NCBI GenBank assembly: GCA_041650355.1
Contig: JBAZLI010000003.1
Coordinates: 1-25,834 of the forward strand
Length of the DNA stretch: 25,834 bases
Direction of reading: 5' to 3'
DNA from: Candidatus Micrarchaeia archaeon
GTDB lineage: Archaea; Micrarchaeota; Micrarchaeia; Anstonellales; Bilamarchaeaceae
A model generated the notes under the pieces. It did no database searches, was not told the origin of the DNA, and saw nothing but the letters and a program-made list of their open reading frames with translations. The translations under genes and the position numbers were made by a program. This document shows, piece by piece, positions 1 to 25,834 of this stretch (its first letter is position 1; each line of letters begins with the position of its first letter).

Positions 1-77
1 GTCTCCGCGATATGGCTCCCCACCATCCCGGTGGCCCCCGTGAGGAACACGTTCTTTCCGTTCCAGAATTTGTCCAT
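1..77 (-). CDS. rfbG: CDP-glucose 4,6-dehydratase, N-terminal fragment; the gene continues beyond the window start
   Basis: The reverse complement of 1-77 reads MDKFWNGKNVFLTGATGMVGSHIAE. This gives an NAD-binding Rossmann GxxGxxG motif typical of the N-terminus of CDP-glucose 4,6-dehydratases. The ATG at 77..75 lies 4 nt after the stop of the upstream rfbF, so the two are probably in one operon. Only 25 codons are visible. Confidence 0.45.
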   Translation of the reverse strand, partial: MDKFWNGKNVFLTGATGMVGSHIAE

Positions 78-81
78 GCAA

Positions 82-846
82 TCACCAGACTTTCCAGGGC
101 GCCTTTCCGGAAACCCAGAGCTCCTCGAGGTCGTTCTTGTCCCTGAGTTTGTCCATGGGCTTCCAAAAGCCGGAGTGTCTGTACGCCATCATACCCCCTT
201 CGGCAGAAAGCTTTTCCGCCGGTTCCCGTTCCCAGGCGGTTTCGTCCCCTTTTATGTAATCGAACACAGCAGGCTCAAGCACGAAGAAGCCGCCGTTTAT
301 CCAAACGCCGTCGCCCTTGGGCTTTTCCGAGAAATTTTTCACGGATTCCCCCTCGATGTTCAGCACTCCGAAGCGGCCCGGCGGCTGCACCGCAGTCACA
401 GTTGCGGGCTTCCCGTGCTTTTTGTGGAATTGGACCAGGTCCCTGATGTTTATGTCCGAAAGTCCGTCCCCGTAAGTAAGCATGAATGCACCGTCTATGT
501 ACTTCTGGACTTTCTTCACCCTCCCGCCAGTCTGCGTTTCCAATCCTGTATCCACGAGGGTGACCTTCCAGTCCTCGCTGTGCGTGTCGTGCACTTCCAT
601 CTTGTTGCTTTTCAGGTCTATTGTGATGTCCGAGCGGTGCAAAAAGTAGTTGGCGAACCATTCCTTTATCATGTAGCCCTTGTAGCCGAGGCACACCACG
701 AACTCGTTGAAGCCGTAGTGCGAGTATGTTTTCATTATGTGCCACAAGATGGGCATGCCGCCTATTTCGACCATGGGCTTCGGCCTCACGCTGGTCTCCT
801 CGCTCAGCCGTGTGCCCAGCCCCCCTGCAAGAATAATAGTCTTCAT
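82..846 (-). CDS. rfbF: glucose-1-phosphate cytidylyltransferase
   Basis: The 254-aa product starts MKTIILAGGLGTRLSEETSVRPKPMVEIGGMPILWHIMK and continues through YGDG, PPGRFG, INGGFFVL and GFWKPMDKLRDK. This is the near-invariant signature of the RfbF/DdhA family. The ORF track begins at a GTG at 855, but the in-frame ATG at 846 gives the family-consensus N-terminus and has a GGTGG Shine-Dalgarno-like motif upstream. Confidence 0.85.
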   Translation of the reverse strand: MKTIILAGGLGTRLSEETSVRPKPMVEIGGMPILWHIMKTYSHYGFNEFVVCLGYKGYMIKEWFANYFLHRSDITIDLKSNKMEVHDTHSEDWKVTLVDTGLETQTGGRVKKVQKYIDGAFMLTYGDGLSDINIRDLVQFHKKHGKPATVTAVQPPGRFGVLNIEGESVKNFSEKPKGDGVWINGGFFVLEPAVFDYIKGDETAWEREPAEKLSAEGGMMAYRHSGFWKPMDKLRDKNDLEELWVSGKAPWKVW

Positions 847-880
847 ATAGCCCACCTACCTAAGTTCTGCGGGAGTTTTT

Positions 881-1549
881 TTAAATAGTCTGATTAAGCT
901 CCTTGAATTTTTTTATGCCCTTGGGAGTCCCTATGTCGTATATGGCGCATTCGGTTTCATAAGCCAGCAGCGCACCTTCATAAGCCAATTTCGGGAAAAT
1001 CTCCCTTTCCAGGCTTATCTCCATCCTCTTCGCGTAATCCGGGAGGTCCTTCCTCCTGATGAAGCACATGCCAGTGTAAACCTTTCCCTTTCCTTCGGTC
1101 GATTTCTCCATGAATTCGGCCACTTTCCCGTCCGCAGTCCTGACCGCCCCCCGCGCCTTCCTCTCCTCGTTGGAGAGCAGGAGCGCGCTCCTGTTCCTGT
1201 TCTCGCAGAAGGACATGAAGCCCCGGAGGTCGAGCGGATAGAGGAAAGTGTCCCCGTTGCACACGAAGAAGCGGTTCGGGAGGTCCTTCTTCATGTAAAT
1301 CAGGGCCCCGCCGGTTCCGAGCGGCTCATCTTCCACGAGCACATCCACATTGTCATCCTTGAATTTGAGGAATTCCTCGCCTTTGTAGCCGGCAAGCAGT
1401 ATTATCCTGTCGAAATGGCCCGAGTAAAGCCTTATGAGGTGCGAAAGGAACGCCTTCCCGTTTACCTTTATGAGCGATTTCGGGACCTTTCGCGTGATTG
1501 CACCAAGCCTTCTGCCCTTTCCACCGCACAATATGTACAGAATGCGCAT
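881..1549 (-). CDS. hddC: sugar-1-phosphate nucleotidyltransferase, probably D-glycero-alpha-D-manno-heptose-1-phosphate guanylyltransferase (HddC-like)
   Basis: The 223-aa product starts MRILYILCGGKGRRLGAITRKVPKSLIKVNGKAF with a G-rich NTP-binding loop, followed by EDEPLGTGGAL and FFVCNGDTF, which is a nucleotidyltransferase fold. The assignment to HddC is by context: it sits divergently from hddA-gmhA-gmhB. The ORF track extends it to 1885, but that N-terminal extension overlaps hddA and has no protein-like composition. The ATG at 1549 is verified. Confidence 0.6.
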   Translation of the reverse strand: MRILYILCGGKGRRLGAITRKVPKSLIKVNGKAFLSHLIRLYSGHFDRIILLAGYKGEEFLKFKDDNVDVLVEDEPLGTGGALIYMKKDLPNRFFVCNGDTFLYPLDLRGFMSFCENRNRSALLLSNEERKARGAVRTADGKVAEFMEKSTEGKGKVYTGMCFIRRKDLPDYAKRMEISLEREIFPKLAYEGALLAYETECAIYDIGTPKGIKKFKELNQTI

Positions 1550-1615
1550 AATCCTGTTTTTCAGCAAATATTTATAATCGCGAATGCTATTAATATCGGA
1601 TTTCTGGGGAAACTT
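1550..1615. promoter_or_regulatory. divergent AT-rich promoter region between hddC(-) and hddA(+)
   Basis: A 66-nt AT-rich spacer (tttataatcgcgaatgctattaatatcgg) carries TATA-like boxes in both orientations about 25-30 nt from each start codon. Confidence 0.5.
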
Positions 1616-2623
1616 ATGGTTAAGACGATAAAATCGCGCGCACCCATGCGCATAAGCTTCGCAGGCGGAGGCACTGACGTGGCCCCGTTCAGCGACGAGT
1701 ACGGGGGCGCGGTGCTCAACACCGCGATTTCCAAGTACGCCTACGTGACGCTCATCGAGAGAGACAGCGGCATAGTGCTCAAGTCCTCGGAATACATTCC
1801 GGGGCTCCAGTACAACGAGAAGCGCGAGCTTGTGGAAGACGGGAAGGTTGACATACTCAAGGCGACGATAAAGAACTACCTGCACAGCAGCAAGGGGATG
1901 GAAATTTCCTTCTTTCTTGACGCGCCCAGGCGTTCTGGTCTCGGCGCATCGGCATCGGCGTTCGTGGCGCTGCTTTCAGCGATAAACCAGGCCGAATCCC
2001 TGAGCATGACCCGGAAGAGGATTGCCGAGGAGGCGTGGCGGCTGGAGCGCGAGGAGCTCAACAACATCGGGGGCAAGCAGGACCAGTACGTGAGCGCCTT
2101 CGGCGGGATAAACTACCTGGAATTCTCTTCGAAGGGCGTGGACGTTTTCCCGCTCAGAATGGATGACAGGACCGCGATGGAGATGGAAAGCAGGATAATA
2201 ATATTTTATTACATGCCTAGGGACGCCTCCGGGGCCGTGCTCGAAAGGCAGATAGCGAACGTGATGGAAAAGAAGAAGGAGACGATAGACGCGCTTCTCA
2301 GGAGCAGGGAGATTGCAAGAGAGATGAAGCAGCTGCTCCTGAACGGCGACGTTGAAGGGGTGGGGAGACTTCTCGACGAGGGCTGGATGGAGAAGAAGAA
2401 ATTCTCGGATTCTATTTCATCCCCGGAAATTGATTCGCTCTACGCCCACCTGAAGGAGAAGGGCGTCATCGGGGGGAAGATAAGCGGCGCAGGCGGAGGG
2501 GGCTTCATGTTCGTCCTGTGCGAGGAGAACAAAACTCTTGACGTTTACTATTACCTGCTCGAGCTTGGGCTCTCGCCCATATTCCTGAGCATAGACAAAA
2601 GGGGTGCGGCGACATGGGCGTGA
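1616..2623 (+). CDS. hddA: GHMP-family sugar kinase, D-glycero-alpha-D-manno-heptose 7-phosphate kinase-like
   Basis: The 336-aa product starts MVKTIKSRAPMRISFAGGGTDV. It has the GHMP motif PRRSGLGASASAFVALLSAI and a C-terminal GGKISGAGGGGFMFVL. The start at 1616 was chosen over the ORF-track start at 1415 because the upstream part overlaps hddC and the promoter. It overlaps gmhA by 10 nt. Confidence 0.75.
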   Translation: MVKTIKSRAPMRISFAGGGTDVAPFSDEYGGAVLNTAISKYAYVTLIERDSGIVLKSSEYIPGLQYNEKRELVEDGKVDILKATIKNYLHSSKGMEISFFLDAPRRSGLGASASAFVALLSAINQAESLSMTRKRIAEEAWRLEREELNNIGGKQDQYVSAFGGINYLEFSSKGVDVFPLRMDDRTAMEMESRIIIFYYMPRDASGAVLERQIANVMEKKKETIDALLRSREIAREMKQLLLNGDVEGVGRLLDEGWMEKKKFSDSISSPEIDSLYAHLKEKGVIGGKISGAGGGGFMFVLCEENKTLDVYYYLLELGLSPIFLSIDKRGAATWA

Positions 2624-3177
2624 GCGAAGGGAAGAAGGGCCTCGCGGAGGCGCTGGAAAAAATCAGCGGGGCGGAAATAGTTGAATGCTCCGCGGCGCTT
2701 GCGGACGCGCTGAAGCGCGGGAACAAGATACTTATTGCGGGCAATGGAGGGAGCGCAGCCGACGCCCAGCATTTCGCGGCTGAATTGGTGTGCACATTTG
2801 AAGACAGGGGAAGAAAGGCGCTTCCCGCATATGCGCTCACCACGAATTCAAGCGTGATGAGCGCGTGGGCGAACGATTTTTCCTTTGATTCCGTATTCAG
2901 CAGGCAGGTTGAAGCGCTCGGGAGCAGAGGGGACGCGCTGGTTTCCATCACCACGAGCGGGAAATCCAAGAATATTCTACTTGCGATGGAAAAGGCGAGG
3001 GAAAAAGGGCTGAAGAACATCCTGCTTTCAGGAAAAGGCGGAGGGGACGCGGCGAAGCTCGCGGACATCGCGATAATTGTTGATTCGAGCAGCACGCCCC
3101 GCATACAGGAATGCCACATATTCTGCATACACGAGATATGCGCGATTCTGGACAGGGAGTTCAAAGATGAAAAATAA
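2614..3177 (+). CDS. gmhA: phosphoheptose isomerase (SIS domain); D-sedoheptulose 7-phosphate isomerase
   Basis: The 187-aa product has the SIS-domain hallmarks KILIAGNGGSAADAQHFAAEL, SVFSRQVEALG, ALVSITTSGKSKNIL and a conserved C-terminal QECHI.C.HEIC.ILD. Confidence 0.85.
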   Translation: MGVSEGKKGLAEALEKISGAEIVECSAALADALKRGNKILIAGNGGSAADAQHFAAELVCTFEDRGRKALPAYALTTNSSVMSAWANDFSFDSVFSRQVEALGSRGDALVSITTSGKSKNILLAMEKAREKGLKNILLSGKGGGDAAKLADIAIIVDSSSTPRIQECHIFCIHEICAILDREFKDEK

Positions 3178-3631
3178 GGCGCTTTTCCTGGACCGGGACG
3201 GGACGATAATCGAGCATGTGCCCTATATAAGCGACCCTGCGAAAGTGGGGCTCGTAATGCCCGTAATCCGGAAAATGCTGGAGTTCCAGCGCAAGAATTA
3301 CCTCGTCATAATAATAACCAACCAGTCTGGAATCGCGCGCGGATTTATAACGCAAGAGGAGTATGATGCAGTTAATACGAAGATGCTCAAGCTGCTCGAA
3401 ATCGCGGGCGTAAGAATAACCGGTATTTTCATGTGCCCTTCGCATCCTGATGAAAAAGACCCGCGGAGGAAGCCGAACCCAGGCATGATCCTGGAAGCGG
3501 CGGAGAAATTCAACATCGACCTGCCCGAGTCAATCATGGTCGGGGACTCAGAGAACGATTTGGAGGCCGGGAAAAGGGCTGGAGTGAAAATATCGCTTCC
3601 GGTCGCGAAATTCCTTAATTTCTCACTCTGA
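3167..3631 (+). CDS. gmhB: D,D-heptose 1,7-bisphosphate phosphatase (HAD superfamily, histidinol-phosphatase-like)
   Basis: The 154-aa product starts MKNKALFLDRDGTII, giving the DxDGT HAD motif I. It continues ITNQSGIARG, CPSHP.....RKPNPGM and MVGDSENDLEAGKRAG, which are HAD motifs II-IV. The ATG at 3167 is verified and overlaps the gmhA stop. Confidence 0.8.
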   Translation: MKNKALFLDRDGTIIEHVPYISDPAKVGLVMPVIRKMLEFQRKNYLVIIITNQSGIARGFITQEEYDAVNTKMLKLLEIAGVRITGIFMCPSHPDEKDPRRKPNPGMILEAAEKFNIDLPESIMVGDSENDLEAGKRAGVKISLPVAKFLNFSL

Positions 3632-5248
3632 GCGCATGAGCATCCACACGATTTCCACGTGCGAGTCCTTCATGCCGACGCGCCTGAAAGCAGAGCGCAG
3701 GAGCTCTATGTCCTCCTTTCCGAAAGCCCTGAGGAGCGAGAGGAAGACGAAATAAATGGCGCAGCAAACGAGGAACAGAATTCCCAGGACTCCGAACTGC
3801 CATACCTTCTGGAAAGCCGGGCTGGAAGCTATTTCAGCCGGAAGAGGGACGCTGAACCCGAATAAAACCGCGAAATAATCCTTCAGCAGGAGGAAAGCGC
3901 CCAGGGCCAGGAGGGCGGCAAGGAAGGGGCGCACGCTGCCGGCTAGGAAAGTGCCGCCCGCGAACTTTCTGGAATAGTAAATCAGCAGGAGCGAAACCGA
4001 GATAAGGGCGATTGCTGAAGCGAACGCCGCGCCCTCCATCCCGTAGCCGGGTATGAGCAGGACATTGAGAACCACGTTGAGGAGCGCTCCGAACACCGCG
4101 ATTCCCAGTTCCACTTTCATCAGCCTCATCGCCGCAAGGACCGAACTGTGAACCGTGCTCGCGGTCCTGAGGAACACCCCTATTGTGAAGATGGAGAGCA
4201 CAAGCGCCCCGGATGCATACGCAGAGCCGTAGAAAAGCACGAGTATCTCTTTCGGGAGCGATATGAGCAGCATCGCCGCCGGAACCATGAGTATGAGCAC
4301 CCAGCGCGTCGCGAACGTCGAGCTTTCAAGCATCTCTTTCTTCTTGCCCTTCGCATAAAGCTCGGATATTATCGGAAGGAATATGTTGCCTAGCGCGGAC
4401 GGGAATATGGAGACCACCCCTCCGAGCGTGGTAGCCATTGCGTACACCGCTATTACGCCCGCGGCCTTTGAGGGGTCTATCATGTATCCCAGCATTATCC
4501 TGTCGCTCGACGAGATGAGGATCCACATCGCTGTTATGACCGAGAGCACGGCTCCGAAAGGGACCGCCTCCTTCAGCGCCTCCACCTGGTCTTTCAAGCT
4601 GACTTCCGAGGCTATGCCGCTCTCATCAATCATCTTCTTCACGTACCAGAAAGAGAGGAGGGCCGCGAGCACGAACGAAGCCACATAAGCAGCGGTGAGG
4701 CTCAGCACGCTGGAGCCGATGAAAACGAAAAGCAACACAGTGAGCACGAGCTTGAGGGCGTGCTGGCTGTTGGAAAGCAGGACCTGCGTCCGCACGTTCT
4801 TCATGCTCAGGAGCGAGTAGCTGTTCAGGTTGAGCAGGCTGTTCACGAGCACGAAGAACGCGAGCACCTGCATTACTATTTCTAGGTCCGGATTCCCGGC
4901 GCTCTCTGCGATGTAGGGCGCCCCTATCATTATGAGAATGCCCATGAGCACCGAAAAGAAAGTGACGAACCAGTATGCGCCCCTCAGCAGCGCATATGCC
5001 TTCTTTTTCTCGCCTTTCCCCATATAGTACGGTATGAAGCGTGTGAAGGCCGCGAACAGTCCCAGATCCCCGAAAATCCCGAGTATGCTTATGAAGCCCA
5101 GTCCGAGGTAGAAAGTGCCTATGTCCTGCTGGCTGAACAGGCGCGTGGACACCATAAGGTAAACGAAAGAGATGATTTTGAAGAACAGGTTGCCGACAAG
5201 GCCCCACACAGTGCCCTTCACGACCGTTTTTTGTTCCTCGAGCGCCAT
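3623..5248 (-). CDS. wzx: polysaccharide/oligosaccharide flippase of the MOP superfamily (Wzx-like)
   Basis: The 541-aa product is strongly hydrophobic throughout, with about 12-14 predicted TM segments. The N-terminal VKGTVWGLVGNLFFKIISFVYLMVSTRLFSQQDIGTFYL is typical of the polysaccharide biosynthesis protein (Wzx/RfbX) family. It is convergent with gmhB, with a 9-nt overlap of the 3' ends. Confidence 0.75.
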   Translation of the reverse strand: MALEEQKTVVKGTVWGLVGNLFFKIISFVYLMVSTRLFSQQDIGTFYLGLGFISILGIFGDLGLFAAFTRFIPYYMGKGEKKKAYALLRGAYWFVTFFSVLMGILIMIGAPYIAESAGNPDLEIVMQVLAFFVLVNSLLNLNSYSLLSMKNVRTQVLLSNSQHALKLVLTVLLFVFIGSSVLSLTAAYVASFVLAALLSFWYVKKMIDESGIASEVSLKDQVEALKEAVPFGAVLSVITAMWILISSSDRIMLGYMIDPSKAAGVIAVYAMATTLGGVVSIFPSALGNIFLPIISELYAKGKKKEMLESSTFATRWVLILMVPAAMLLISLPKEILVLFYGSAYASGALVLSIFTIGVFLRTASTVHSSVLAAMRLMKVELGIAVFGALLNVVLNVLLIPGYGMEGAAFASAIALISVSLLLIYYSRKFAGGTFLAGSVRPFLAALLALGAFLLLKDYFAVLFGFSVPLPAEIASSPAFQKVWQFGVLGILFLVCCAIYFVFLSLLRAFGKEDIELLRSAFRRVGMKDSHVEIVWMLMRSE

Positions 5249-5329
5249 CGCACTACCTTTTTACAATCTGGTTTCACTTCTCCACCTCTATTTATTAAAT
5301 TTCTTCAATATTTATTTCCGGTCATTCTC
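5249..5329. promoter_or_regulatory. divergent promoter region for wzx(-) and gatE(+)
   Basis: An AT-rich spacer with tttattaaatttcttcaatatttattt about 25 nt upstream of the gatE ATG. Confidence 0.45.
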
Positions 5330-7102
5330 ATGAAGCTAGGCCTTGAAATCCACCAGCGGCTGGATACGCACAAGCTTTTCTGCAGCTGCCCAGCGAAAGA
5401 GGGCAGAGGCGAGCCCAAAAAAGTCGTGCGCACGCTCCACCCGGTTTACAGCGAGATGGGCGAGGTGGACAAAACATCCCTTGCGGAAGCCGAGAGGGAG
5501 CAGACTTTCGAATACCTGTTTTACGATGACTGCTGCTGCCTCGTGGAGCTTGATGAGGAGCCGCCGCATCCGCTTAACGCGGAAGCCCTGCGCATCGGGC
5601 TTGAAATCGCGCTCCAGCTCAAATCCAGGCCCGTGGACGAAGTGCACGTGATGCGCAAAACAGTGATAGACGGGAGCAACACGTCCGGATTCCAGCGCAC
5701 AGCGGTAATCGCGATGGGCGGGAAGGTGGAAAGCAAGAACGGCGACGTGCGCGTGAGCACAGTTGCAATAGAAGAGGAGAGCGCGGGCATAGTTGAGAAA
5801 AAAGGGGGGAGAGCGATATATTCACTCGATAGATTAGGAATTCCGCTGGTCGAGATAGGGACCGAGCCGGACATAAAAAGCCCCGAGCACCTCAGGGAAA
5901 TTGCCGAGAAAATAGGGCTCATGCTCAGGGCTACGGGGAAGGTCATGCGCGGCCTCGGAACGATAAGGCAGGACGTGAACGTGAGTGTGGAAGGCGGCGC
6001 GCGGGTTGAGATAAAAGGCGCCCAGGACTTGAAATCCATTGCGCTTATTGCGGAAAACGAGGCGAAAAGGCAGGAAGCCCTGCTTGCGACAATAAGGGAA
6101 GTTGGGAAAAGATTCGGCGGAAAAGCCGAGTTGAGCGGAAAAATCCTGGACGCGAGCGATTTGTTCAAAGGGACTCAGGCGAAGCTTCTGAAAGCCGGAC
6201 TGGATTCAGGGCAGAAAGTGCTTGGAATGAAGCTGGAAAGGCACGCAGGGCTGCTCGGAAAAGAGATAAACCTGGGCAGGAGGTACGGAACCGAGCTGAG
6301 CGACTATGCGAAAACCGCTGGCGTGAAAGGGCTGATACACAGCGACGAGGACATGGAAAAATACGGAATTGCGGATAAAGAGCATGCCGATATTTGCAGG
6401 ATGCTCAAAATGGAAAAAGAGGATGCGTTCGTGCTTGTGGTCGCGCAGGAAGGCGTTGCAAAAAAAGCCCTGGAAAAAGCGCTTGCGCGGGCAAGGATGG
6501 ATTTCATCCCGAAGGAAACCAGGAAAGCCAACGCGGACGGCACCAGCTCGTTCATGCGCCCTCTTGCAGGGCGCGCGAGGCTTTATCCCGAAACCGACAT
6601 CCCGCCGGTGCGCGTAAGCGCGGAACTGCTCGATGAAACAAGGTCCGGGGCTTCCGAGAGCCTGGAGCAGAAGAGGGAGAAGCTTCTCAAGCTGCTCAAC
6701 AAGGATATGGCAGAACGGATGCTGCGCTCCAGGAACCTGAATGTTTTCGAAAAGCTGGTTGAGATGAAAATCGAGCCTACGCTTGCAGCCGCGACTCTGG
6801 AGGATACGCTCACAATGCTCAGGAGGGAGGGCGTGGAAGTAGGCGGGGAGCATGTGCTCGCGCTTTTCGCAGAGTACCAGAAGGGGAGCTTCGTGAAGGC
6901 CGCGATACCGAATTTGCTGAAGGAAACCGCAAGAGGAAAAAGCTTGGAAAATGCCCTTGACGAGAAGCAGCTGCGGAAAATAAGCGGAGCGGAACTAAGG
7001 AAAATAATAAGGGAAAACAGCAAAAGCATGGCCGCGATAATGGCCAAGTACCGCCTGCGCGTGGATTCAAAGGAGGTTGCGGAGCTGATAAAGTCTATGT
7101 AA
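5330..7102 (+). CDS. gatE: glutamyl-tRNA(Gln) amidotransferase subunit E (archaeal GatE)
   Basis: The 590-aa product starts MKLGLEIHQRLDTHKLFCSCP, matching the GatE N-terminus. It has an inserted AspRS-like domain and a C-terminal YqeY-like tail (AELRKIIRENSKSMAAIMAKY). The ORF track starts earlier at 5231, but that part overlaps the wzx start and promoter. The ATG at 5330 is verified. Confidence 0.9.
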   Translation: MKLGLEIHQRLDTHKLFCSCPAKEGRGEPKKVVRTLHPVYSEMGEVDKTSLAEAEREQTFEYLFYDDCCCLVELDEEPPHPLNAEALRIGLEIALQLKSRPVDEVHVMRKTVIDGSNTSGFQRTAVIAMGGKVESKNGDVRVSTVAIEEESAGIVEKKGGRAIYSLDRLGIPLVEIGTEPDIKSPEHLREIAEKIGLMLRATGKVMRGLGTIRQDVNVSVEGGARVEIKGAQDLKSIALIAENEAKRQEALLATIREVGKRFGGKAELSGKILDASDLFKGTQAKLLKAGLDSGQKVLGMKLERHAGLLGKEINLGRRYGTELSDYAKTAGVKGLIHSDEDMEKYGIADKEHADICRMLKMEKEDAFVLVVAQEGVAKKALEKALARARMDFIPKETRKANADGTSSFMRPLAGRARLYPETDIPPVRVSAELLDETRSGASESLEQKREKLLKLLNKDMAERMLRSRNLNVFEKLVEMKIEPTLAAATLEDTLTMLRREGVEVGGEHVLALFAEYQKGSFVKAAIPNLLKETARGKSLENALDEKQLRKISGAELRKIIRENSKSMAAIMAKYRLRVDSKEVAELIKSM

Positions 7103-11966: not shown

Positions 11967-12506
11967 ATGGAAGAAAAATGGAAGGGCGCAGCCGAAATCC
12001 TGCTCGCAGCCTTATTGGCGTTTTTCTCGTTTCTGCTCAGTCCCTGGCTCGCCCAGAACTTCGCGCCGTTTGGCTACGTGGGCGTTTTCCTTTTCTCCGT
12101 CTTCGCGTCTGCGACAATTTTTCTCCCTGTCCCATCCTGGATCCTGGTGTTCTCGCTTGCCCAATCTTTCAACCCTCTGCTCCTTGGCATATCCGCCGGC
12201 CTGGGTTCGGGCATTGGCGAGCTCAGCGGCTACCTTGCCGGGCGCGGAGGAAAATACCTGATCGGCGGCGACAAGACCGCATTTTTCGAGGAACATAAAA
12301 AATGGATAGTGAAAGCCGAGTTCCCCACCTTATTCATCGTGTCGTTCCTGCCCAATCCTTTTTTCGACATAGCCGGAGTCGCCGCAGGAATCCTTAACGT
12401 TCCGCTCTGGCGCTTCCTTCTGGCAGTGGTGCTGGGAAAAATCCTGCGGTTCACCCTGCTTGCATATTTCGGAATCCAGATTCTCGGAGCCTTCGGGCTG
12501 ATGTGA
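11967..12506 (+). CDS. small polytopic membrane protein, DedA/VTT (SNARE-associated, YqaA-like) family candidate
   Basis: The 179-aa product has 4-5 hydrophobic segments. FLFSVFASATIFLPVPSWILVF and a glycine-rich loop GLGSGIGELSGYLAGRGG resemble the VTT domain. It follows dcd after 4 nt. Confidence 0.45.
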   Translation: MEEKWKGAAEILLAALLAFFSFLLSPWLAQNFAPFGYVGVFLFSVFASATIFLPVPSWILVFSLAQSFNPLLLGISAGLGSGIGELSGYLAGRGGKYLIGGDKTAFFEEHKKWIVKAEFPTLFIVSFLPNPFFDIAGVAAGILNVPLWRFLLAVVLGKILRFTLLAYFGIQILGAFGLM

Positions 12507-12510
12507 CCGC

Positions 12511-13080
12511 ATGCCCAAATTAGTAATCCTGGACCTGGACGAAACCCTGCTCCGCATTCCAGCGGACTGGGAGAAAGTAATGGCAGAAGTGATTGAATAC
12601 GGCAGAAGCCAGGGCGCCGCGTTCAACCCTTCCGACCAGGTAATCCCGCTCTCCTCCGCAGTTTCCAGCACGCCTGAGCGCAAATTGGAAGTGGATTCCA
12701 TATGGCGCAGGCACGAACTCTCTTCAATTGAAAAATCCGGCGTCGTGCGCTACGCGAAAGCCGAGAGTTTCGTGAAAAAAATGAAGAAGCGCGGCATGCT
12801 TCTCGCGATAGCCTCGAACAACACCCACGCAACCGCGGAGAAGGCGCTGGCTCTCGCTGGGCTCTCGCAGTTTTTCGACTTAATAGTGTGCAGGGACGAC
12901 GTTCATGAAACAAAGCCCGGCCCGGAGATGCTCCTCAGAATCCTGGACAGGTTCGGAATCGCAAAAGAAGAAGCTGTTTTCATAGGCAACAGCGAGACGA
13001 GCGACGCACCTGCAGGAAAAGCCGCAGGCGTAAGAACGCTCATAGTGAAGCCGGATTCCGCATTCCCGCAAATTGAATAA
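12511..13080 (+). CDS. HAD-superfamily hydrolase (phosphatase)
   Basis: The 189-aa product starts MPKLVILDLDETLL, giving the DxDET HAD motif I. It continues LAIASNN (motif II), K (motif III) and FIGNSETSDAPAGKAAGV (motif IV). Confidence 0.75.
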   Translation: MPKLVILDLDETLLRIPADWEKVMAEVIEYGRSQGAAFNPSDQVIPLSSAVSSTPERKLEVDSIWRRHELSSIEKSGVVRYAKAESFVKKMKKRGMLLAIASNNTHATAEKALALAGLSQFFDLIVCRDDVHETKPGPEMLLRILDRFGIAKEEAVFIGNSETSDAPAGKAAGVRTLIVKPDSAFPQIE

Positions 13081-13146
13081 ATCCTGCCGAAGCGTGTTAA
13101 AATATAGTTTTTTAAGTTCTTCCCCCATATATCTTTTTGTGGGTGG

Positions 13147-13926
13147 ATGGACGCAAAACGTAGCCTAACTAGAAAAGATCCAGGCACTTACAGAGAGGGC
13201 TACAATAGCACCCCTAAACACGGCCCGCTGATTCTCCATCCGCTGCTTGACAGCATGCTCGCCGTGAATCCGGCCCAATTCATAAGCCGGAAGATAGATG
13301 AAACGCTCGTAAAGATTCCGGGCGCTCTCAAAACAGACCAACCGATATGGACGTTTGAAGTCGTAGTTTTTCCAAAGCCCTATGGCGCTTTTGAAAAGGG
13401 CGTGGATATAATAGACCCGATAACAGGCTGGATTTTCCCGTGGATGCAGATACCCGGAAGCGCCTTCGGGGTTAAAGGCATTGCCCTTCAATTCATTCCT
13501 TCCTTATCGGGCAGCGGTGAAGGCACCGTTGTAAGCCCCAGAAATTCAAAAGCCATCATTACGGTGGAAGATTTTATTCAAGGGGCCATGGGCGAGGGAG
13601 CTGTGCATCCAGGCTCTCGTTTGGCCACAGTCAAGGCGGCAACCGGAAATCAGCTTCGCACGCTCAAGCGGCCACCCACCGAAGGAATACGCATTGCAAC
13701 TAGATGTGCATTTGACTGGAATCTCATAAGCCTTGCGGACCATCCGGATAAAGAAAGGTTCTGGCTCGTATTTTTGCAGCCCATCGCCAAATCCATGGTG
13801 CCCGAATCATCCGAACAAAAACCTCCGGATTCCACGTCAAGCAGGATTCCGAAAAGAGTTGACATACAACCCGATTCTGAAGTCGAAGTATTGATGCACG
13901 GGCTTAAAGAAGTACTGGGCAAATGA
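13147..13926 (+). CDS. hypothetical protein (ORFan; coding status uncertain)
   Basis: The 259-aa ORF has no family signature I can recognise. Its amino-acid composition and lower GC differ from flanking genes. Several overlapping minus-strand ORFs of similar length exist, which is typical of non-coding or decayed sequence. Confidence 0.25.
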   Translation: MDAKRSLTRKDPGTYREGYNSTPKHGPLILHPLLDSMLAVNPAQFISRKIDETLVKIPGALKTDQPIWTFEVVVFPKPYGAFEKGVDIIDPITGWIFPWMQIPGSAFGVKGIALQFIPSLSGSGEGTVVSPRNSKAIITVEDFIQGAMGEGAVHPGSRLATVKAATGNQLRTLKRPPTEGIRIATRCAFDWNLISLADHPDKERFWLVFLQPIAKSMVPESSEQKPPDSTSSRIPKRVDIQPDSEVEVLMHGLKEVLGK

Positions 13927-14136
13927 GCGCCCGCCCCCTAATCCTGAAAAGAAAAAAGTGCAGGAGTCATTTTGGCTGTTGCCAAAAGTTCCTTCATTTT
14001 AAAAATAAAATGCAGGGAGCAAGATTGTCAGCTTGCTGGCAATTTTTGGTCGCCAGACCAAAGCTTTTGAACTTGCGCAGCTGCTAGAGCACCAGACCCT
14101 GAATCTGGCACGTTTGACCGGGCTCCGCCATCCCTG

Positions 14137-15284: not shown

Positions 15285-15356
15285 GGGCTGGTAGATCAAC
15301 GGCAGATCGCATCGTTCGCATCGATGAGGCTGAGGGTTCAAATCCCTCCCAGTCCA
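15285..15356 (+). tRNA. tRNA-Ala (anticodon CGC)
   Basis: GGGCUGG UA GAUC AACGGCA GAUC G CAUCG UUCGCAU CGAUG AGGCU GAGGG UUCAAAU CCCUC CCAGUCC A. The cloverleaf is intact, with the G3:U70 wobble that is the universal alanine identity element. The anticodon loop is UU-CGC-AU and the T-loop is TTCAAAT. There is no encoded CCA. A TATA-like attcctattatac lies about 20-30 nt upstream. Confidence 0.85.
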
Positions 15357-21285: not shown

Positions 21286-22344
21286 ATGAAAAAACTCCTC
21301 CTGCTCCTTCCGGCGCTGCTCATTCTCCTCGCCGGCTGCCCTGGGACGCCTCCGGACCAGCCCCCGCAGCAGAACATCACCATTACCCATGTGAACGTGA
21401 GCCAGTTCACCGTTACCATGGAAACGGAAACGATAATAACCGGCGAAAACGTGATAGTGATAAACAACACCCAAAACGAGACCAACACGACCGCGAACAG
21501 GAGCATACCCGATTACACTTTCAACCCGAACCAGACGCTCGCGGTTTATTTCATAAACGTCTCGTACATAAAGGATTGGTCCCCCAACGCGAGCAATGAG
21601 CGCCAGGGCGAGGCGATACTCCTGAAAAAAGGGGATGCCGACATACTCATAGACGCAGGCCCGAAGGAGCGCGCCGTTTATCTGGTAAACTTCCTGAGGG
21701 AAAAAGGCGTGGATGATATAGATCTCCTGGTTTCCACGCATGCGCGGCCCGAGAACTACGGAGGGATGGACACGCTCCTGGACCACATAGATGTGGAAAT
21801 GTTCCTCTGGACAGGCTACGACGGCGGGGATTCCGCCTACGCGGCGGCAGTCCAGAAGGCCAAGAGCGAAAGCAGGAAATCCATGGAATCCAAGTACCTC
21901 CAGAACATCAGCATAAATGGAATAAACATCCTGGTGATAAACCCCCGGGACGGCGACGCGCGCTTCAAGTCCATAGACAACGACGGCATAGTGCTCAAGA
22001 TAACCGACAGGAACTTCTCGCTCATGACCACCGGGGACATAGCCTACGGCGCGCAAACCCTGATAGCCAATGCTCCGGACTACAGCCCTGCGTGCAACGT
22101 GCTCCAGATACCGAATTCCGGCCTTGGGACAGGGAGCTCGCAGATAGACGTGTTCCTGGTGAAGGTGAAGCCCCAGTCCGCGATAATAACCGGCTCGCAT
22201 TTCGACCCTGCGAACGAGCGCTATTCGCTGACCGAGCGCCTCAAGCTCAGGAACATCACCTACTACACTAATTTCCAGAACAAATCAACCAATGTGGTGA
22301 AAATAGTCACGGACGGCTACACCTACTCAATTTTGACCAGCTAG
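21286..22344 (+). CDS. lipobox lipoprotein with metallo-beta-lactamase fold (ComEC/Rec2-like MBL domain), N-glycosylation-sequon rich
   Basis: The 352-aa product starts MKKLLLLLPALLILLAGC, a signal peptide plus a lipobox Cys. A Pro/Gln linker follows, then GEAILLKKGDADILIDAGPKE, VSTHARPENYGGMDTLL and TGDIAYGAQTLIA, which are MBL-fold elements of ComEC-type beta-lactamase domains. It has about 13 N-x-S/T sequons. Confidence 0.6.
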   Translation: MKKLLLLLPALLILLAGCPGTPPDQPPQQNITITHVNVSQFTVTMETETIITGENVIVINNTQNETNTTANRSIPDYTFNPNQTLAVYFINVSYIKDWSPNASNERQGEAILLKKGDADILIDAGPKERAVYLVNFLREKGVDDIDLLVSTHARPENYGGMDTLLDHIDVEMFLWTGYDGGDSAYAAAVQKAKSESRKSMESKYLQNISINGINILVINPRDGDARFKSIDNDGIVLKITDRNFSLMTTGDIAYGAQTLIANAPDYSPACNVLQIPNSGLGTGSSQIDVFLVKVKPQSAIITGSHFDPANERYSLTERLKLRNITYYTNFQNKSTNVVKIVTDGYTYSILTS

Positions 22345-23704: not shown

Positions 23705-24487
23705 TCATTTCCTCTTCCTGGATTTCGCAGGGCTTTTTTTCACGTTTCCCCTTGGTCCACGCTTCTCCTTCCTCCCTGGCCCGCGCTTCGCTTTTCGGAG
23801 CTTGCGCGAAGTTTTCACCGAACCTCCACGCATGCGCGGAAGCGCATTCCTGATTGCGGAAGATATCCCCTCGTACACGTTCTCGTCCACCACCCCCAAG
23901 TAAATCCCCTTGCCGAAAGGGGTGGGCTGCTCCGCGTTCGCGACCACGACGCGCACCTTCTTCCCTACCTCCAGCCCGCCGAGCTCAGCCCTGGAGCTTT
24001 CTATTTCCCCGCTCCCGTTGAGCGAGTATATGTCCAGGTGCGTCGGAGTGGCCAGCACGAGCACGCTCTGCTCCGGGCTGCCGCCCCTCTTTATCGCGCA
24101 TCCGCAAACCATTTCGTAATCAGGAATCTCCATGCCCTTCGCGCGCTCCGCGAGGTCCGAAGTCTCGAACGCCCCCTCGTTCCCGTTGAAGGAAAGCCCG
24201 TTGGTTATGCGCGTGACGCTCCTGTGCGGGTCCACCATGCTCCTTTCAACGGTCCATTCGTTCACTTTCAGGAGCTCTTCGCTCAGCTCCAGATTGAATT
24301 TCAATTGCTTCAGAATCCTGCGCCTCGCCAGCGCCCTCGTATTCAATATCATCTCCGCGATTTCCGCCTGCTTTATGTTCCCCTCCATTGCATTCCCGGG
24401 CGCATGCGCTTCGCTGAATTTTTTCCTTTTTTCTCGTTCCTTTACAGCAAAAGCTTCCCGCCTCTTCGCGAGCTTCATGCGTTCCAT
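23705..24487 (-). CDS. hypothetical nucleic-acid-binding protein with Lys/Arg-rich N- and C-terminal tails
   Basis: The product is about 260 aa from MERMKLAKRREAFAVKEREKRKK to GPGRKEKRGPRGNVKKSPAKSRKRK. A central beta-rich region has VGKKVRVVVANAEQPTPFGKGIYLGVV. The ORF-track start at 24565 would place a TTTTAAATTA TATA box inside the coding sequence. The internal ATG at 24487, about 22 nt downstream of that TATA, is the more likely leaderless start. Confidence 0.45.
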   Translation of the reverse strand: MERMKLAKRREAFAVKEREKRKKFSEAHAPGNAMEGNIKQAEIAEMILNTRALARRRILKQLKFNLELSEELLKVNEWTVERSMVDPHRSVTRITNGLSFNGNEGAFETSDLAERAKGMEIPDYEMVCGCAIKRGGSPEQSVLVLATPTHLDIYSLNGSGEIESSRAELGGLEVGKKVRVVVANAEQPTPFGKGIYLGVVDENVYEGISSAIRNALPRMRGGSVKTSRKLRKAKRGPGRKEKRGPRGNVKKSPAKSRKRK

Positions 24488-24843
24488 GGCGGAATAAATG
24501 CGCACATAATTTAAAAGCCTAATTCCGCCCGGCCATCGGCTTGCAATAGTCCGCAAATCATCCATCTCCAGGAGTTTTTCCTCGGCGCCTTTATACTCCG
24601 CTTTTCGCCCTGCGCGTGTGTGGGATTTGGTAAATTTTAGGTAATTCTACGTCGTAAAAATGCGTTTTCCCTGATGCAGAACATTTATAAAGTGTAATGG
24701 AAAAAGCTGTTTATCCGCCGGTCTCTGCACATAGAGCTGGCGTGATTTCTGTGGAACGATGCGTTGGACGAATGATTCTGCGCAATTGCCGCGCTTGAAG
24801 CATTGCTTCTGTGCGGCCTGATATTGAAACGATGGTGGTATGA

Positions 24844-25834
24844 ATGGATGGAAACTCAACTTGGAAGTCTGGTTTGACAGCTTTGCTCGTGTTCGCGTTC
24901 TTCGCGGGCGCGCTTTTCGCCGATGCACCCACTGTGGGCACGGTATACGTGAGCGGGTTCAACGCCACCGGACAGGTGGTATTCGCCTCATTTGAACTTG
25001 CCGGAGGCGACCCGAACGTCACTTCCTGTCACTACAATCCAAGAATAGGCATAGCCGGCTGGCACCTGATGAACGAGTACAACAACATCCATCTGCTCTG
25101 CTACGACTCCAATGCCGACCTCCATGAAGCCCCTTCGCTCGATACCATACGCGTCCAGGCCACCAACGCGAACGGCACCGGCGAATCGCCAGCCAACGTA
25201 ACTCTTGATATATCGCCTCCAAGCACCTGCGACGTTTCAGCCATAGACGAGCTTTCAGCTTATGCTTATGTCACCGGCACTACGATATACTATAATAACA
25301 TATCAGCCGGCGATTTCAACGTAACCGTTGATGCTGCCGACGACGACTCAGGAATCTACTACGTAAGCTTCCCGGGCACGGTTTCCAACGGAGACTACGC
25401 ATACAGCGTCCCCTACCTGCTTAACTATAACTGGACCACATCCAGCACCGCGACCTTCAATCCGGCAACAGCGACCTGCTACGACAACATGAGAGTGAAC
25501 AACGACACCACCACGTTCAGCGTGATTCTGGACAACACCGCGCCGGTTATTGGAACGGTTTCCATAGTTCCATCCTACTTCAACGGGAGCATGCGTTATG
25601 TTTCAATACTCTCCAACATATCCGCTACAGCCAGCGACAGCGGCTCAGGAATCAATGAATCCACCTGCGAATACTACACTGATGGAAGCACCTGGACTGC
25701 GGCAGACGGCTACACCGGCGGCGAGTGCTATGAAACTGACGCTGACACGTCCGCGGCAAGCGAGATAAACATGCGCGTATGGGACAACGTCAACAACTCG
25801 GACGCAGACAACGGAACCCCGCCCCCCGTTGACG
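24844..25834 (+). CDS. secreted/surface glycoprotein, 5' partial; the gene continues beyond the window end
   Basis: The ORF runs open to the window end. It starts MDGNSTWKSGLTALLVFAFFAGALFADAPT, a signal peptide. It has more than ten N-x-S/T sequons in 330 aa and is Thr/Ser/Asn/Tyr-rich. This composition is typical of archaeal S-layer or surface adhesin proteins. Confidence 0.55.
   Translation, partial: MDGNSTWKSGLTALLVFAFFAGALFADAPTVGTVYVSGFNATGQVVFASFELAGGDPNVTSCHYNPRIGIAGWHLMNEYNNIHLLCYDSNADLHEAPSLDTIRVQATNANGTGESPANVTLDISPPSTCDVSAIDELSAYAYVTGTTIYYNNISAGDFNVTVDAADDDSGIYYVSFPGTVSNGDYAYSVPYLLNYNWTTSSTATFNPATATCYDNMRVNNDTTTFSVILDNTAPVIGTVSIVPSYFNGSMRYVSILSNISATASDSGSGINESTCEYYTDGSTWTAADGYTGGECYETDADTSAASEINMRVWDNVNNSDADNGTPPPVD

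Follow-up and report, generated by a model that had tools for sequence, protein, structure and literature searches.

Four adjoining genes in a 25,834-nt stretch of a Micrarchaeia contig (the whole of it hereafter called the window) are likely, judging from sequence comparisons and a predicted structure, to produce GDP-heptose for a surface glycan. [quoted passage not shown] This chemistry is established for C. jejuni (PMC10680097). The pentose-phosphate pathway is missing in many Micrarchaeota (PMC5864196), which bears on the supply of sedoheptulose-7-phosphate. Family comparisons favor the complete GDP-heptose pathway that an earlier note on this DNA had proposed: the kinase groups with heptose-7-phosphate kinases, not fucokinases, and the transferase lies nearest to Yersinia pseudotuberculosis HddC (YpHddC) by sequence and predicted fold, not to the fucose- or mannose-1-phosphate enzymes that the note had named as competitors. 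None of the four enzymes attains its NCBIfam equivalog cut-off (HddA, HddC, GmhA, GmhB), and we treat them as divergent members of their families.

Gene layout and the divergent spacer

The module is arranged around a 66-nt divergent intergenic spacer (1550–1615). On the plus strand, the hddA-like kinase gene (1616–2623, 335 aa) is followed by gmhA, encoding a SIS isomerase (2614–3177, 187 aa), and by the gmhB-like HAD-IIIA phosphatase gene (3167–3631, 154 aa). With overlaps of 10 nt (hddA/gmhA) and 11 nt (gmhA/gmhB), these genes probably form one translationally coupled operon. A MOP flippase gene on the minus strand (3623–5248, 541 aa) converges on gmhB, and their 3′ ends overlap by 9 nt. 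Also on the minus strand, the single-domain HddC-like NTase gene (881–1549, 222 aa) precedes rfbF (82–855, 257 aa, or 254 aa from an alternative start at 846, the latter being the length called elsewhere) and an rfbG-like N-terminus of 25 codons, called as an open reading frame from position 77 down to the window edge (1–77). The gaps between the three are 25 nt (NTase to rfbF) and 4 nt (rfbF to rfbG) and therefore resemble the spacing of one operon, so the hddC-like gene is probably cotranscribed with rfbF and rfbG. Gene starts are backed by alignment to relatives and agree with the products of 335 and 222 aa called by NCBI. The gene calls, the spacer and both overlaps described in the earlier note were all reproduced, and each family that it named was recovered in Pfam and NCBIfam profile searches.

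The spacer is 68% A+T, compared with 47% across the window, and contains two TATA-like boxes, TTATAAAT at −28 to −21 relative to the NTase ATG and ATTAATAT at −27 to −20 relative to the kinase ATG. From these features we infer putative back-to-back archaeal promoters, and the box spacing would suit leaderless transcripts. A σ70 scan of the spacer found nothing, although its model is inapplicable to archaea. The window also encodes GatD/GatE, NurA, Pth2, a proteasome α subunit and SecDF, which confirm its archaeal origin.

Assignment of the sugar-processing enzymes and the flippase

The kinase contains both GHMP_kinases_N and GHMP_kinases_C (Pfam), and its top NCBIfam match is HddA (NF049969, 226 bits against a cut-off of 600). 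Over its full length it matches the heptose-7-phosphate kinases in the PDB with 201 (3K85), 187 (4N3O) and 186 bits (4USK, WcbL). A fucokinase identity was rejected on its lower scores, 94.5 bits for the NCBIfam model and 73 bits for FKP in the PDB. [quoted passage not shown]

GmhA is a predicted sedoheptulose-7-phosphate isomerase. It scores 191.5 bits with TIGR00441 (cut-off 209.45) and 188.7 with PRK13936, and among PDB entries it matches 1TK9, the phosphoheptose isomerase of C. jejuni, best (170 bits, residues 12–183). The match to DiaA is weaker, at 117 bits.

The GmhB-like protein is predicted to be a heptose-1,7-bisphosphate 7-phosphatase. It falls short of the cut-offs of PRK08942 (136.5 bits, cut-off 178) and α-GmhB NF050049 (111 bits, cut-off 250) and exceeds that of TIGR01656 (135 bits, cut-off 84); in the PDB it matches the GmhB enzymes of M. 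loti (2O2X, 100 bits) and E. coli (3L8E, 82 bits). The HAD motifs DRDGT, TNQSG, RKP and GDSENDLEAG are all present. In the tree, it clusters with the HAD domain of NTase–GmhB fusion proteins (96% bootstrap), and this clade does not contain the CxH...CxC Zn-binding cap motif. Scores are slightly higher against the β-pathway model and the β-pathway structure, in a family whose α and β classes were left unseparated by the tree.

The neighboring rfbF gene encodes a protein that would serve as a glucose-1-phosphate cytidylyltransferase, with a full-length match of 443.7 bits to the TIGR02623 equivalog (cut-off 300.25) and a Pfam NTP_transferase domain. The 25-residue rfbG-like translation, MDKFWNGKNVFLTGATGMVGSHIAE, weakly matches the CDP-glucose 4,6-dehydratases 1WVG (E 0.009) and 1RKX as its best PDB hits, with FWxGKxVFxTGxTG in common. 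It is probably an SDR enzyme of this type, an identity strengthened by its place directly downstream of rfbF and by the SDR gene that follows an rfbF-like gene in the closest relative. Together the two enzymes would provide CDP-glucose and CDP-4-keto-6-deoxyglucose, which may feed dideoxyhexose synthesis, as the earlier note suggested; in the window, the CDP-sugar genes comprise rfbF and these 25 residues, as the second gene runs off the edge and the remainder of the operon is located past position 1.

The flippase was described earlier as a MOP-family protein, and Pfam agrees (Polysacc_synt 84.7 bits, Polysacc_synt_3 60, MurJ 47, MatE 44). The sequence thus places it in the MOP superfamily as a Polysacc_synt/Wzx-type protein. 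From end to end it shares 44% identity with an orthologous flippase beside the heptose module of one relative (L008), and the closest relative has a 516-aa Polysacc_synt gene at the matching convergent position.

Nucleotide and sugar specificity of the HddC-like enzyme

The top PDB sequence match of the NTase is YpHddC (6JQ8/5XHW, 79 bits, residues 4–214), ahead of GMPPB at 61 bits. Its AlphaFold model (pLDDT 92.6) again retrieves 6JQ8 first in Foldseek (E 8e-19, TM 0.82/0.81). The sequence VEDEPLGTGGA aligns to the HddC motif EXEPLGTGGA, in which Glu80 of YpHddC makes two hydrogen bonds to guanine (PMC6981941).

We consider it improbable, at roughly one chance in ten in our estimation, that the module yields CDP-, UDP- or ADP-heptose in place of GDP-heptose. 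Such a product would be in keeping with the divergence of the NTase, which reaches 71 bits with the NCBIfam HddC model against a cut-off of 300, and with departures from the reference motifs: Ser53 of YpHddC is Leu here, so that L(S/A/G)X(S/G) is not strictly met, and the Pro and second Glu of EXEPLGTGGA vary among Micrarchaeota orthologues. Archaeal heptose nucleotidyltransferases of a different fold have moreover been reported to yield ADP-, CDP- and UDP-heptose (PMC11461863). The guanine-binding Glu, however, is kept in the window NTase, in four aligned Micrarchaeota orthologues and, without exception, in the 45 NTases that a genome scan located next to HddA-like kinases; CTP- and UTP-dependent relatives carry other residues at this position, where the window RfbF also aligns differently. 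Mutation of Glu80 in YpHddC lowers GTP use and brings no pyrimidine use (PMC6981941). The top sequence matches are all GTP-using enzymes (HddC, GMPPB, leishmanial GDP-mannose pyrophosphorylase and VTC1), as are the top fold matches except for the catalytically inactive GMPPA subunit.

With GTP as the favored nucleotide, the sugar could still differ, and an equally small probability attaches to an enzyme that acts chiefly as a mannose-1-phosphate guanylyltransferase, supplies GDP-mannose for glycosylation in general and lies beside the heptose genes by chance or for dual use; the pathway would then not be dedicated. The top NCBIfam match is indeed a mycobacterial mannose-1-phosphate guanylyltransferase model (89 bits, followed by archaeal GlmU at 76 and then HddC), Foldseek matches 3–9 (TM 0.80–0.85) consist of GDP-mannose pyrophosphorylases together with the related GMPPA subunit, YpHddC itself accepts α-mannose-1-phosphate (PMC6981941), and promiscuous enzymes may be favored in reduced DPANN genomes. 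Against this, the NTase is single-domain at 222 aa, as HddC is, and has no C-terminal left-handed β-helix (LbH) of the GMPPB type. In a neighbor-joining tree it falls outside the LbH-bearing clade, as sister to archaeal NTase–GmhB fusions (88% bootstrap), with 38% bootstrap at the deep node that places it on the HddC side. These fusions, 375 aa long, are its nearest relatives outside Micrarchaeota and lie on archaeal contigs with GHMP kinase and SIS isomerase genes next to them; a 574-aa NTase–kinase fusion also exists (P0096). In five of the six Micrarchaeota loci the NTase gene is divergent and either adjoins the kinase gene or is separated from it by a single GT4 gene; in the sixth it sits ∼4.6 kb upstream, past a copper-resistance island. 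In a wider set of 80 HddA-like loci from GTDB genomes, an NTase is found within 5 kb of the kinase in 45. Because the guanine motif is common to HddC and GMPPB and YpHddC was assayed with mannose-1-phosphate (PMC6981941), the case for heptose-1-phosphate specificity is carried entirely by context and fusions.

A conserved core in a variable glycan island

The order kinase–gmhA–gmhB is identical across the six Micrarchaeota loci, with overlaps in nearly all of them (7–13 nt for kinase/gmhA). Within the same 5 kb, the 80 wider loci contain GmhA in 48 cases, GmhB in 42 and all three partners in 29. Other neighbors vary and include flippases, GT4 enzymes, SDR enzymes, methyltransferases and rfbF/G; the rfbF/rfbG pairing is found in one close relative only, and the flippase in two. 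The four-gene core is thus conserved in layout, whereas the wider locus is better described as a glycan island of changing content than as a fixed unit.

It is very improbable, more so than either reading above, that the genes are a recent gain from bacteria now decaying or unexpressed, or that they serve a non-glycan role through a soluble heptose metabolite, in either case feeding no surface glycan. In favor of such a reading, the module is far commoner in bacteria than in archaea, the window contains no glycosyltransferase or AglB, and heptose phosphates and NDP-heptoses act as signals in other systems (PMC11461863); against it, the module matches its flanks in G+C, its genes are intact with catalytic motifs kept at 57–70% identity across several Micrarchaeota lineages and at a syntenic site adjoining gatE, its NTase and GmhB clades are archaeal, and flippase, GT4, SDR and methyltransferase genes recur around it.

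For the production of GDP-heptose for a surface glycan, the activated sugars would presumably enter a lipid-linked glycan by way of glycosyltransferases encoded elsewhere, and the adjoining flippase would carry this glycan over the membrane, where it would be attached to surface proteins. The earlier note had pointed out two secreted proteins dense in sequons, and these are borne out. The protein at 21286–22344 (plus strand) has 13 N-X-S/T sequons, compared with 4.2 ± 1.8 in composition shuffles, and that at 24844–25834 (plus strand, running off the window end) has 14, compared with 6.2 ± 2.2; the other 21 window proteins have 0–5 each. Both open with a hydrophobic signal-like segment, lipobox-like (…LLAGC) in the first. 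The first gave no Pfam match and is a candidate N-glycoprotein; the second, whose sole Pfam match is a sub-threshold DUF7743, is a candidate surface glycoprotein. Any tie of the two to the heptose locus is speculation.

The suggestion that heptose is unusual for archaea was overstated: it is present in the N-glycan of Thermoplasma acidophilum (PMC11407970), and kinases of the HddA type are known from many bacteria and from at least nine lineages of archaea, whether or not the three partner genes lie close by. As an annotation the result is sound, though ordinary, in that the gene set is widespread in bacteria and found in several other archaeal lineages; its carrier here is a tiny, probably host-dependent archaeon of the Micrarchaeia.

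Gene layout and surroundings of the locus

An ORF map drawn over window positions 1–7000, read together with the raw sequence, places on the minus strand an hddC-like NTP-transferase gene (881–1549, 222 aa), rfbF (82–855), and the first 25 codons of an rfbG-like SDR gene (77 down to 3), which continues past the window edge. The plus strand carries an hddA-like GHMP kinase gene (1616–2623, 335 aa), a gmhA gene for an SIS protein (2614–3177, 187 aa), and a gmhB-like gene for a HAD protein (3167–3631, 154 aa). Convergent with the HAD gene is a minus-strand gene for a membrane protein, a MOP flippase (3623–5248, 541 aa), beyond which the next gene, GatE, starts at 5330. The 66-nt spacer that the earlier note had placed between the divergent nucleotidyltransferase (NTase) and kinase genes is exact on this map, as are the overlaps it had described, 10 nt for kinase/SIS and 11 nt for SIS/HAD. 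The start codons are backed by the orthologue alignment and by the lengths of identical NCBI proteins (335 and 222 aa), and the window kinase has an identical (100%) counterpart in a Candidatus Micrarchaeia MAG. The G+C content of the region is uniform. We propose that hddA-gmhA-gmhB would constitute one translationally coupled operon and that hddC-rfbF-rfbG, with minus-strand gaps of 25 nt (hddC-rfbF) and 4 nt (rfbF-rfbG), is probably a divergent operon.

The divergent spacer (1550–1615) is 68% A+T. Read by eye, it contains the TATA-like sequences TTATAAAT, at −28 to −21 from the hddC start, and ATTAATAT, at −27 to −20 from the hddA start; these positions would fit two back-to-back archaeal TATA boxes with leaderless mRNAs. 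A scan of positions 1–5400 for sigma-70 promoters and intrinsic terminators gave counts not above those of shuffled sequence, and because the sigma-70 model is not applicable to archaea, the TATA-like boxes were judged by eye instead. A second short divergent spacer of 81 nt (5249–5329) runs from the flippase start to the GatE start.

The rfbF and flippase assignments of the earlier note are both upheld by domain searches. RfbF matches TIGR02623 over its full length at 443.7 bits, past the equivalog cut-off of 300.25. The flippase matches PF01943 (84.7), PF13440 (60), PF03023 (47), and PF01554 (44), which are Polysacc_synt/MurJ/MatE domains of the MOP superfamily; it reaches no NCBIfam equivalog cut-off and is 44% identical over its full length to the flippase of a Micrarchaeota relative (locus L008). 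The best PDB matches of the 25-residue fragment are the CDP-glucose 4,6-dehydratases 1WVG and 1RKX (E 0.009–0.03), a short and weak match that, with a fitting position 4 nt after rfbF, hints that the fragment may be RfbG. For the DNA beyond position 1, exact-protein look-ups gave only a 7,957-bp Logan contig beginning near window position 61, and two exact-pattern scans of metagenome_contigs had no match. No glycosyltransferase was found in the window.

The remainder of the window encodes archaeal housekeeping proteins: GatE, GatD, adenylosuccinate lyase, NurA, Pth2, dCTP deaminase, SecF/SecD, UMP kinase, and proteasome alpha. The only RNA gene detected, a tRNA-Ala with anticodon CGC (15285–15356), sits in a lower-G+C gap between an SPFH/Band-7 gene and secF. 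The proteins encoded at 21286–22344 and from 24844 to the end, which had been put forward as candidate acceptors of the glycan, have signal-like N-termini and are genuine sequon-density outliers. These sequon-rich proteins are reasonable candidate N-glycoproteins, but nothing links them specifically to the heptose pathway. The 21286–22344 protein opens with a lipobox-like signal start, MKKLLLLLPALLILLAGC, and contains 13 sequons, with many falling within residues 1–80. Pfam gives no match for it; its middle region (…LVSTHARPENYGG…) resembles, by eye, a degenerate metallo-beta-lactamase/ComEC-type fold. The proteins at 23705–24565 (minus strand) and 13147–13926 (plus strand) also have no Pfam match, and the former ends in a very basic, Lys/Arg-rich C-terminal tail (…KRGPGRKEKRGPRGNVKKSPAKSRKRK).

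Assignment of the four core enzymes

In the proposed pathway, GmhA would isomerise sedoheptulose-7-P, an HddA-type kinase would phosphorylate C1 (the alpha anomer is suggested by the kinase family), GmhB would remove the 7-phosphate, and the HddC-like enzyme would activate the sugar with GTP. The kinase contains both GHMP domains, N-terminal (PF00288, 51 bits) and C-terminal (PF08544, 46 bits), each over its cut-off. Its best NCBIfam family is HddA (NF049969) at 226 bits, below the 600-bit equivalog cut-off and separated by a wide gap from the runner-up, fucokinase, at 94.5 bits. In a PDB sequence search, the kinase aligns over its full length with the solved heptose-7-P kinases 3K85 (201 bits), 4N3O (187 bits), and 4USK (186 bits), as compared with 73 bits for the FKP fucokinase domain and 50 bits for mevalonate kinase. 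The assignment as HddA rather than fucokinase therefore stands, with 186–201 bits to heptose-7-P kinases against 73–94 to fucokinase. A fucokinase/GDP-fucose salvage reading of the locus was rejected on the same scores (73–94 bits to FKP and about 200 to the heptokinases). The kinase is further linked to gmhA and gmhB by reading frames that overlap in the window and in its relatives.

The SIS protein passes the cut-off of SIS_2 (70 bits), falls just under that of TIGR00441 (191.5 bits, cut-off 209.45), and scores 188.7 against 276 for PRK13936. It matches C. jejuni GmhA (1TK9) at 170 bits and eleven more GmhA sequences at 129–145 bits. DiaA, at 117 versus 170 bits, was rejected as its identity.

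The HAD protein is of the HAD-IIIA/histidinol-phosphatase-like type (TIGR01656, 135 bits with a cut-off of 84; TIGR01662, 118 bits with a cut-off of 45) and carries all four HAD motifs, DRDGT, TNQSG, RKP, and GDSENDLEAG. It scores 75–100 bits against solved GmhBs and lies under every GmhB equivalog cut-off (PRK08942, 136.5 of 178; NF050049, 111 of 250; TIGR00213, 110 of 150). A histidinol phosphatase was rejected because HisB scores lower, at 59 bits in the PDB search, and because translation of the gene is coupled to that of gmhA. GmhB enzymes favor one anomer over the other, with ratios from 6:1 to 1:150 (alpha:beta), and usually have a CxH...CxC zinc cap (PMC9798254). This cap is absent from the window GmhB (CPSHPDEK-DPRRKP, around CPSHPDEKDPRRKP), which has no CxC pair; the pair is also missing from the GmhBs of four Micrarchaeota relatives (L003, L005, L006, and L008) and from the fusion proteins described below. 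Most other sampled GmhBs, both the beta-pathway references and those in an HddA context, keep the cap, and a solved GmhB from M. loti is likewise without it. With regard to anomer class, the NCBIfam beta model of GmhB scores slightly above the alpha model, and a neighbour-joining (NJ) tree scatters the beta references among alpha-context sequences with bootstrap values below 50%. The M. loti enzyme, which is the best solved match of the window GmhB, is one we take to be beta-preferring, as Wang et al. reportedly described in 2010. In the same tree, the Micrarchaeota GmhBs are sister to the fused HAD domains with 96% bootstrap. We note that C. jejuni relies on a single GmhB for the GDP-alpha and ADP-beta routes alike (PMC10680097).

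The NTase is the weakest link among the pathway assignments. It is a single-domain protein of 222 aa with PF00483 and PF12804 matches and without a C-terminal LbH domain. Its NCBIfam scores are 89 for a mannose-1-P guanylyltransferase model, 76 for archaeal GlmU, and 71 for HddC (NF049965, cut-off 300). The best solved sequence relative is HddC of Yersinia pseudotuberculosis (YpHddC, PDB 6JQ8/5XHW), with 79 bits over residues 4–214 and 31% identity, ahead of GMPPB (61) and RfbF (48). An AlphaFold model of the NTase (pLDDT 92.6, pTM 0.90) has the same HddC structures, 6JQ8/5XHW, as its top Foldseek matches (E 8e-19, TM 0.82/0.81), followed first by GDP-mannose pyrophosphorylase N-terminal domains and after these by RfbF, RmlA, and MurU. 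In YpHddC, a single-domain protein of similar length (∼225 aa), Glu80 of the EXEPLGTGGA motif contacts guanine through two hydrogen bonds, to N1 and N2, and its mutation lowers GTP use (PMC6981941). The window NTase shares the GXGXR loop and has VEDEPLGTGGA in exact register with EXEPLGTGGA; the guanine-binding Glu is conserved in four aligned Micrarchaeota orthologues and in all 45 kinase-adjacent NTases among the best 80 of at least 595 HddA-like loci. With HddC as the best solved match in both sequence and fold and the guanine-binding Glu kept, the family proposed earlier for the NTase is supported. Since EXEPLGTGGA is common to GDP-mannose pyrophosphorylases, the motif argues for GTP use and not for heptose.

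The enzyme also departs from YpHddC. The L(S/A/G)X(S/G) loop (L52-S53-L54-S55 in YpHddC) is not matched by the window NTase, which reads L-L-A-G with Leu at the Ser53 position, and in the EXEPLGTGGA motif the variable positions two and three differ from one Micrarchaeota orthologue to another. Leu occupies the Ser53 position in 4 of the 45 kinase-adjacent NTases from the best 80 of at least 595 loci, where S, A, C, L, and G are found. In an NJ tree, the Micrarchaeota NTases group as a single clade (97% bootstrap), separate from YpHddC and sister to the NTase domains of fusion proteins (88%); the group falls on the side of YpHddC and the annotated HddCs, at a deep node with only 38% bootstrap.

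The nearest relatives of the NTase outside Micrarchaeota are these fusions with a GmhB-type HAD domain, 375-aa proteins (P0130–P0134) encoded at L010:6001–7128, L011:6001–7128, L012:6001–7128, and L013:5179–6306. The contigs are archaeal as judged by gene content only, with MCM, L10e, and a presenilin-like peptidase close by, and the fusion genes are accompanied by genes for a GHMP kinase, an SIS isomerase, SDR sugar-modifying enzymes, methyltransferases, and GT4. Both fusion domains are sister to the separate Micrarchaeota NTase and GmhB proteins. A second Rosetta-stone link, from transferase to heptose kinase, is a 574-aa protein from a JGI metagenome (P0096) in which an NTP-transferase domain is naturally fused to an HddA-like GHMP kinase. 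Together, the NTase-GmhB and NTase-kinase fusions connect the NTases of this clade with the heptose pathway and back the pathway assignment, and the NTase gene itself is divergent from and adjoins hddA, a layout kept in relatives. Sequence, fold, motif, and fusions thus favor a predicted HddC-like guanylyltransferase. Its specificity for heptose is only inferred, because the motif and the fold are common to GDP-mannose pyrophosphorylases and YpHddC itself accepts mannose-1-P (PMC6981941).

Conservation of the core and its distribution

Six Micrarchaeota loci, with kinases 57–70% identical to that of the window, have kinase-gmhA-gmhB in the same order, and the reading frames overlap in nearly all six. 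The NTase gene is divergent from and directly adjoins the kinase gene in four of them (L003, L005, L008, and L014). A GT4 gene sits between the two in L006, and a copper-resistance island displaces the NTase gene on a JGI contig (3300075153, P0006/P0122). L006 is also syntenic on the other side, with GatE, PurB, GatD, NurA, and Pth2, which places the module at a conserved chromosomal site. In L006, gmhB is followed directly by gatE, without a flippase, so the window flippase appears to reflect an insertion or a deletion at this site.

The partners of the core are less constant. A MOP flippase is present in two of the six relatives as well as in the window, GT4 in three, and several SDR epimerase/dehydratase genes together with methyltransferase genes in two; an rfbF-like gene with an SDR gene occurs in only one, the closest relative (the JGI contig), which also has a convergent flippase. 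This variability indicates that the four-gene core is the unit and that its wider surroundings form a glycan island of variable content. The earlier claim of a single module accordingly stands for the four-gene core, which is kept, and does not extend to the flippase/rfbF surroundings, which vary among relatives. The interpretation as a heptose-precursor locus is supported overall: a GDP-heptose pathway, embedded in a variable Micrarchaeota glycan island, is the best-supported model for the predicted functions of the core.

On the JGI contig, the closest relative with context, the island that breaks the divergent hddC/hddA pair encodes a P-type ATPase, HMA proteins, a cupredoxin, and a MarR-like regulator, and hddC is separated from the rfbF-like gene by three genes without Pfam matches (288, 297, and 370 aa). 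In two other relatives (L006:1728–9916; L008:1–9265 and 12028–13929), up to five SDR epimerase/dehydratase/reductase genes and methyltransferase genes flank the core. These flanks recall the GDP-heptose tailoring enzymes of C. jejuni, suggesting that some lineages may make modified heptoses (6-deoxy, methylated).

A pattern search for HddA-like kinases, with one genome per GTDB species, gave at least 595 loci, and the best 80 were examined. The archaea among these best 80 of at least 595 include Micrarchaeota, Aenigmatarchaeota, Woesearchaeota, Bathyarchaeia, Hadarchaeota, Methanobacteriota, Methanogranum, Methanomassiliicoccales, and several Thermoplasmata. With a 5-kb limit on distance from the kinase, 48 of the 80 loci have GmhA, 45 have an NTase, 42 have GmhB, and 29 have the full set of three. 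The Thermoplasmata kinases, 38–40% identical to that of the window (L017, L019, L021–L024, and L055), have no gmhA, gmhB, or NTase gene within 5 kb; among the neighbors of one of them (L017), the only Pfam result was an uninformative DUF998 protein. Heptose in an N-glycan has been reported for a single archaeon, Thermoplasma acidophilum, yet these Thermoplasmata kinases stand alone. As reviewed in PMC11407970, this N-glycan (Vinogradov et al. 2012) is an archaeal precedent for heptose, and no biosynthetic genes are linked to it in the sources consulted. Literature searches on heptose in Micrarchaeota or other DPANN archaea, and on hddA in archaea, turned up no earlier report.

Relation to known heptose routes and to a predicted surface glycan

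One of the closest parallels is the GDP-heptose pathway of C. jejuni, in which the four steps are established (PMC10680097) and the same four enzyme families act in the same chemical order. C. jejuni also has the best or near-best solved relatives of the window kinase (4N3O, 187 bits) and isomerase (1TK9, 170 bits). The window differs in its archaeal host (DPANN, Micrarchaeia) and in having all four genes clustered with overlapping frames, whereas the C. jejuni gmhB is located away from the other genes and also serves ADP-heptose synthesis. The window proteins are divergent from the C. jejuni type, at ∼30–40% identity and below the NCBIfam equivalog cut-offs, and what they make would go into an archaeal glycan, one presumably linked to dolichol, rather than a capsule or a bacterial S-layer O-glycan. 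Burkholderia pseudomallei follows the same pathway logic with GmhA, the WcbL kinase, the WcbN phosphatase, and the WcbM transferase; WcbL (4USK/4UT4) matches the window kinase over its full length at 186 bits, and GmhA (2XBL/2X3Y) matches the window gmhA product at 145 bits. The B. pseudomallei genes stand in another order within the capsule locus of a bacterium, and their product undergoes tailoring to a 6-deoxy-heptose.

An HldE-type route to beta-NDP-heptose, which likewise begins with GmhA acting on sedoheptulose-7-P and includes GmhB, is reported as functional in archaea (PMC11461863). It relies on a ribokinase-family (PfkB) kinase and a transferase of cytidylyltransferase-like fold with (F/L)XXGXSTT; the window, in contrast, has a GHMP kinase and an enzyme of the NTP_transferase fold, and its predicted product is the alpha anomer linked to GDP. 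The analysis also shows an HddA/HddC-type (alpha, GDP) route, as predicted from the genes, in several archaeal lineages, so that the HldE-type route would not be the sole archaeal one. The advance is incremental, given the textbook chemistry, the heptose names already assigned to some of these archaeal proteins by automated pipelines, and the N-glycan precedent.

The pentose-phosphate pathway, a possible source of sedoheptulose-7-P, is present in only some Micrarchaeota, and Thermoplasmatales are the known partners of the acidophilic ones (PMC5864196). A broader joint reading, which we think improbable as a whole, is that Micrarchaeota, with small genomes and a host-dependent life, retain a GDP-heptose module that is dedicated and passed on vertically; that a surface glycan bearing heptose plays a central part in contact with Thermoplasmatales hosts, which have their own heptose-containing N-glycan, with the module mimicking or complementing the host glycan; and that the module's HddC and GmhB make up an archaeal subfamily of their own, with a GmhB cap lacking the Zn site and a fusion of the two in a sister lineage, which could depart from the bacterial paradigm in its specificity for anomer or nucleotide.

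With the divergent operon proposed here, GDP-heptose and CDP-(4-keto-6-deoxy)glucose would be made together, and the flippase presumably exports a lipid-linked glycan. To our knowledge, no experiments have addressed DPANN surface glycans, though the lifestyle of these archaea depends on surface contact with a host, and we know of no glycan data for any Micrarchaeon. The mechanism is unsurprising, and the locus is a useful lead on DPANN surface glycans: it predicts a heptose-containing glycan, possibly with a 6-deoxy- or dideoxyhexose, on Micrarchaeota surface proteins, and it supplies four small, expressible enzymes with which this prediction can be tested.
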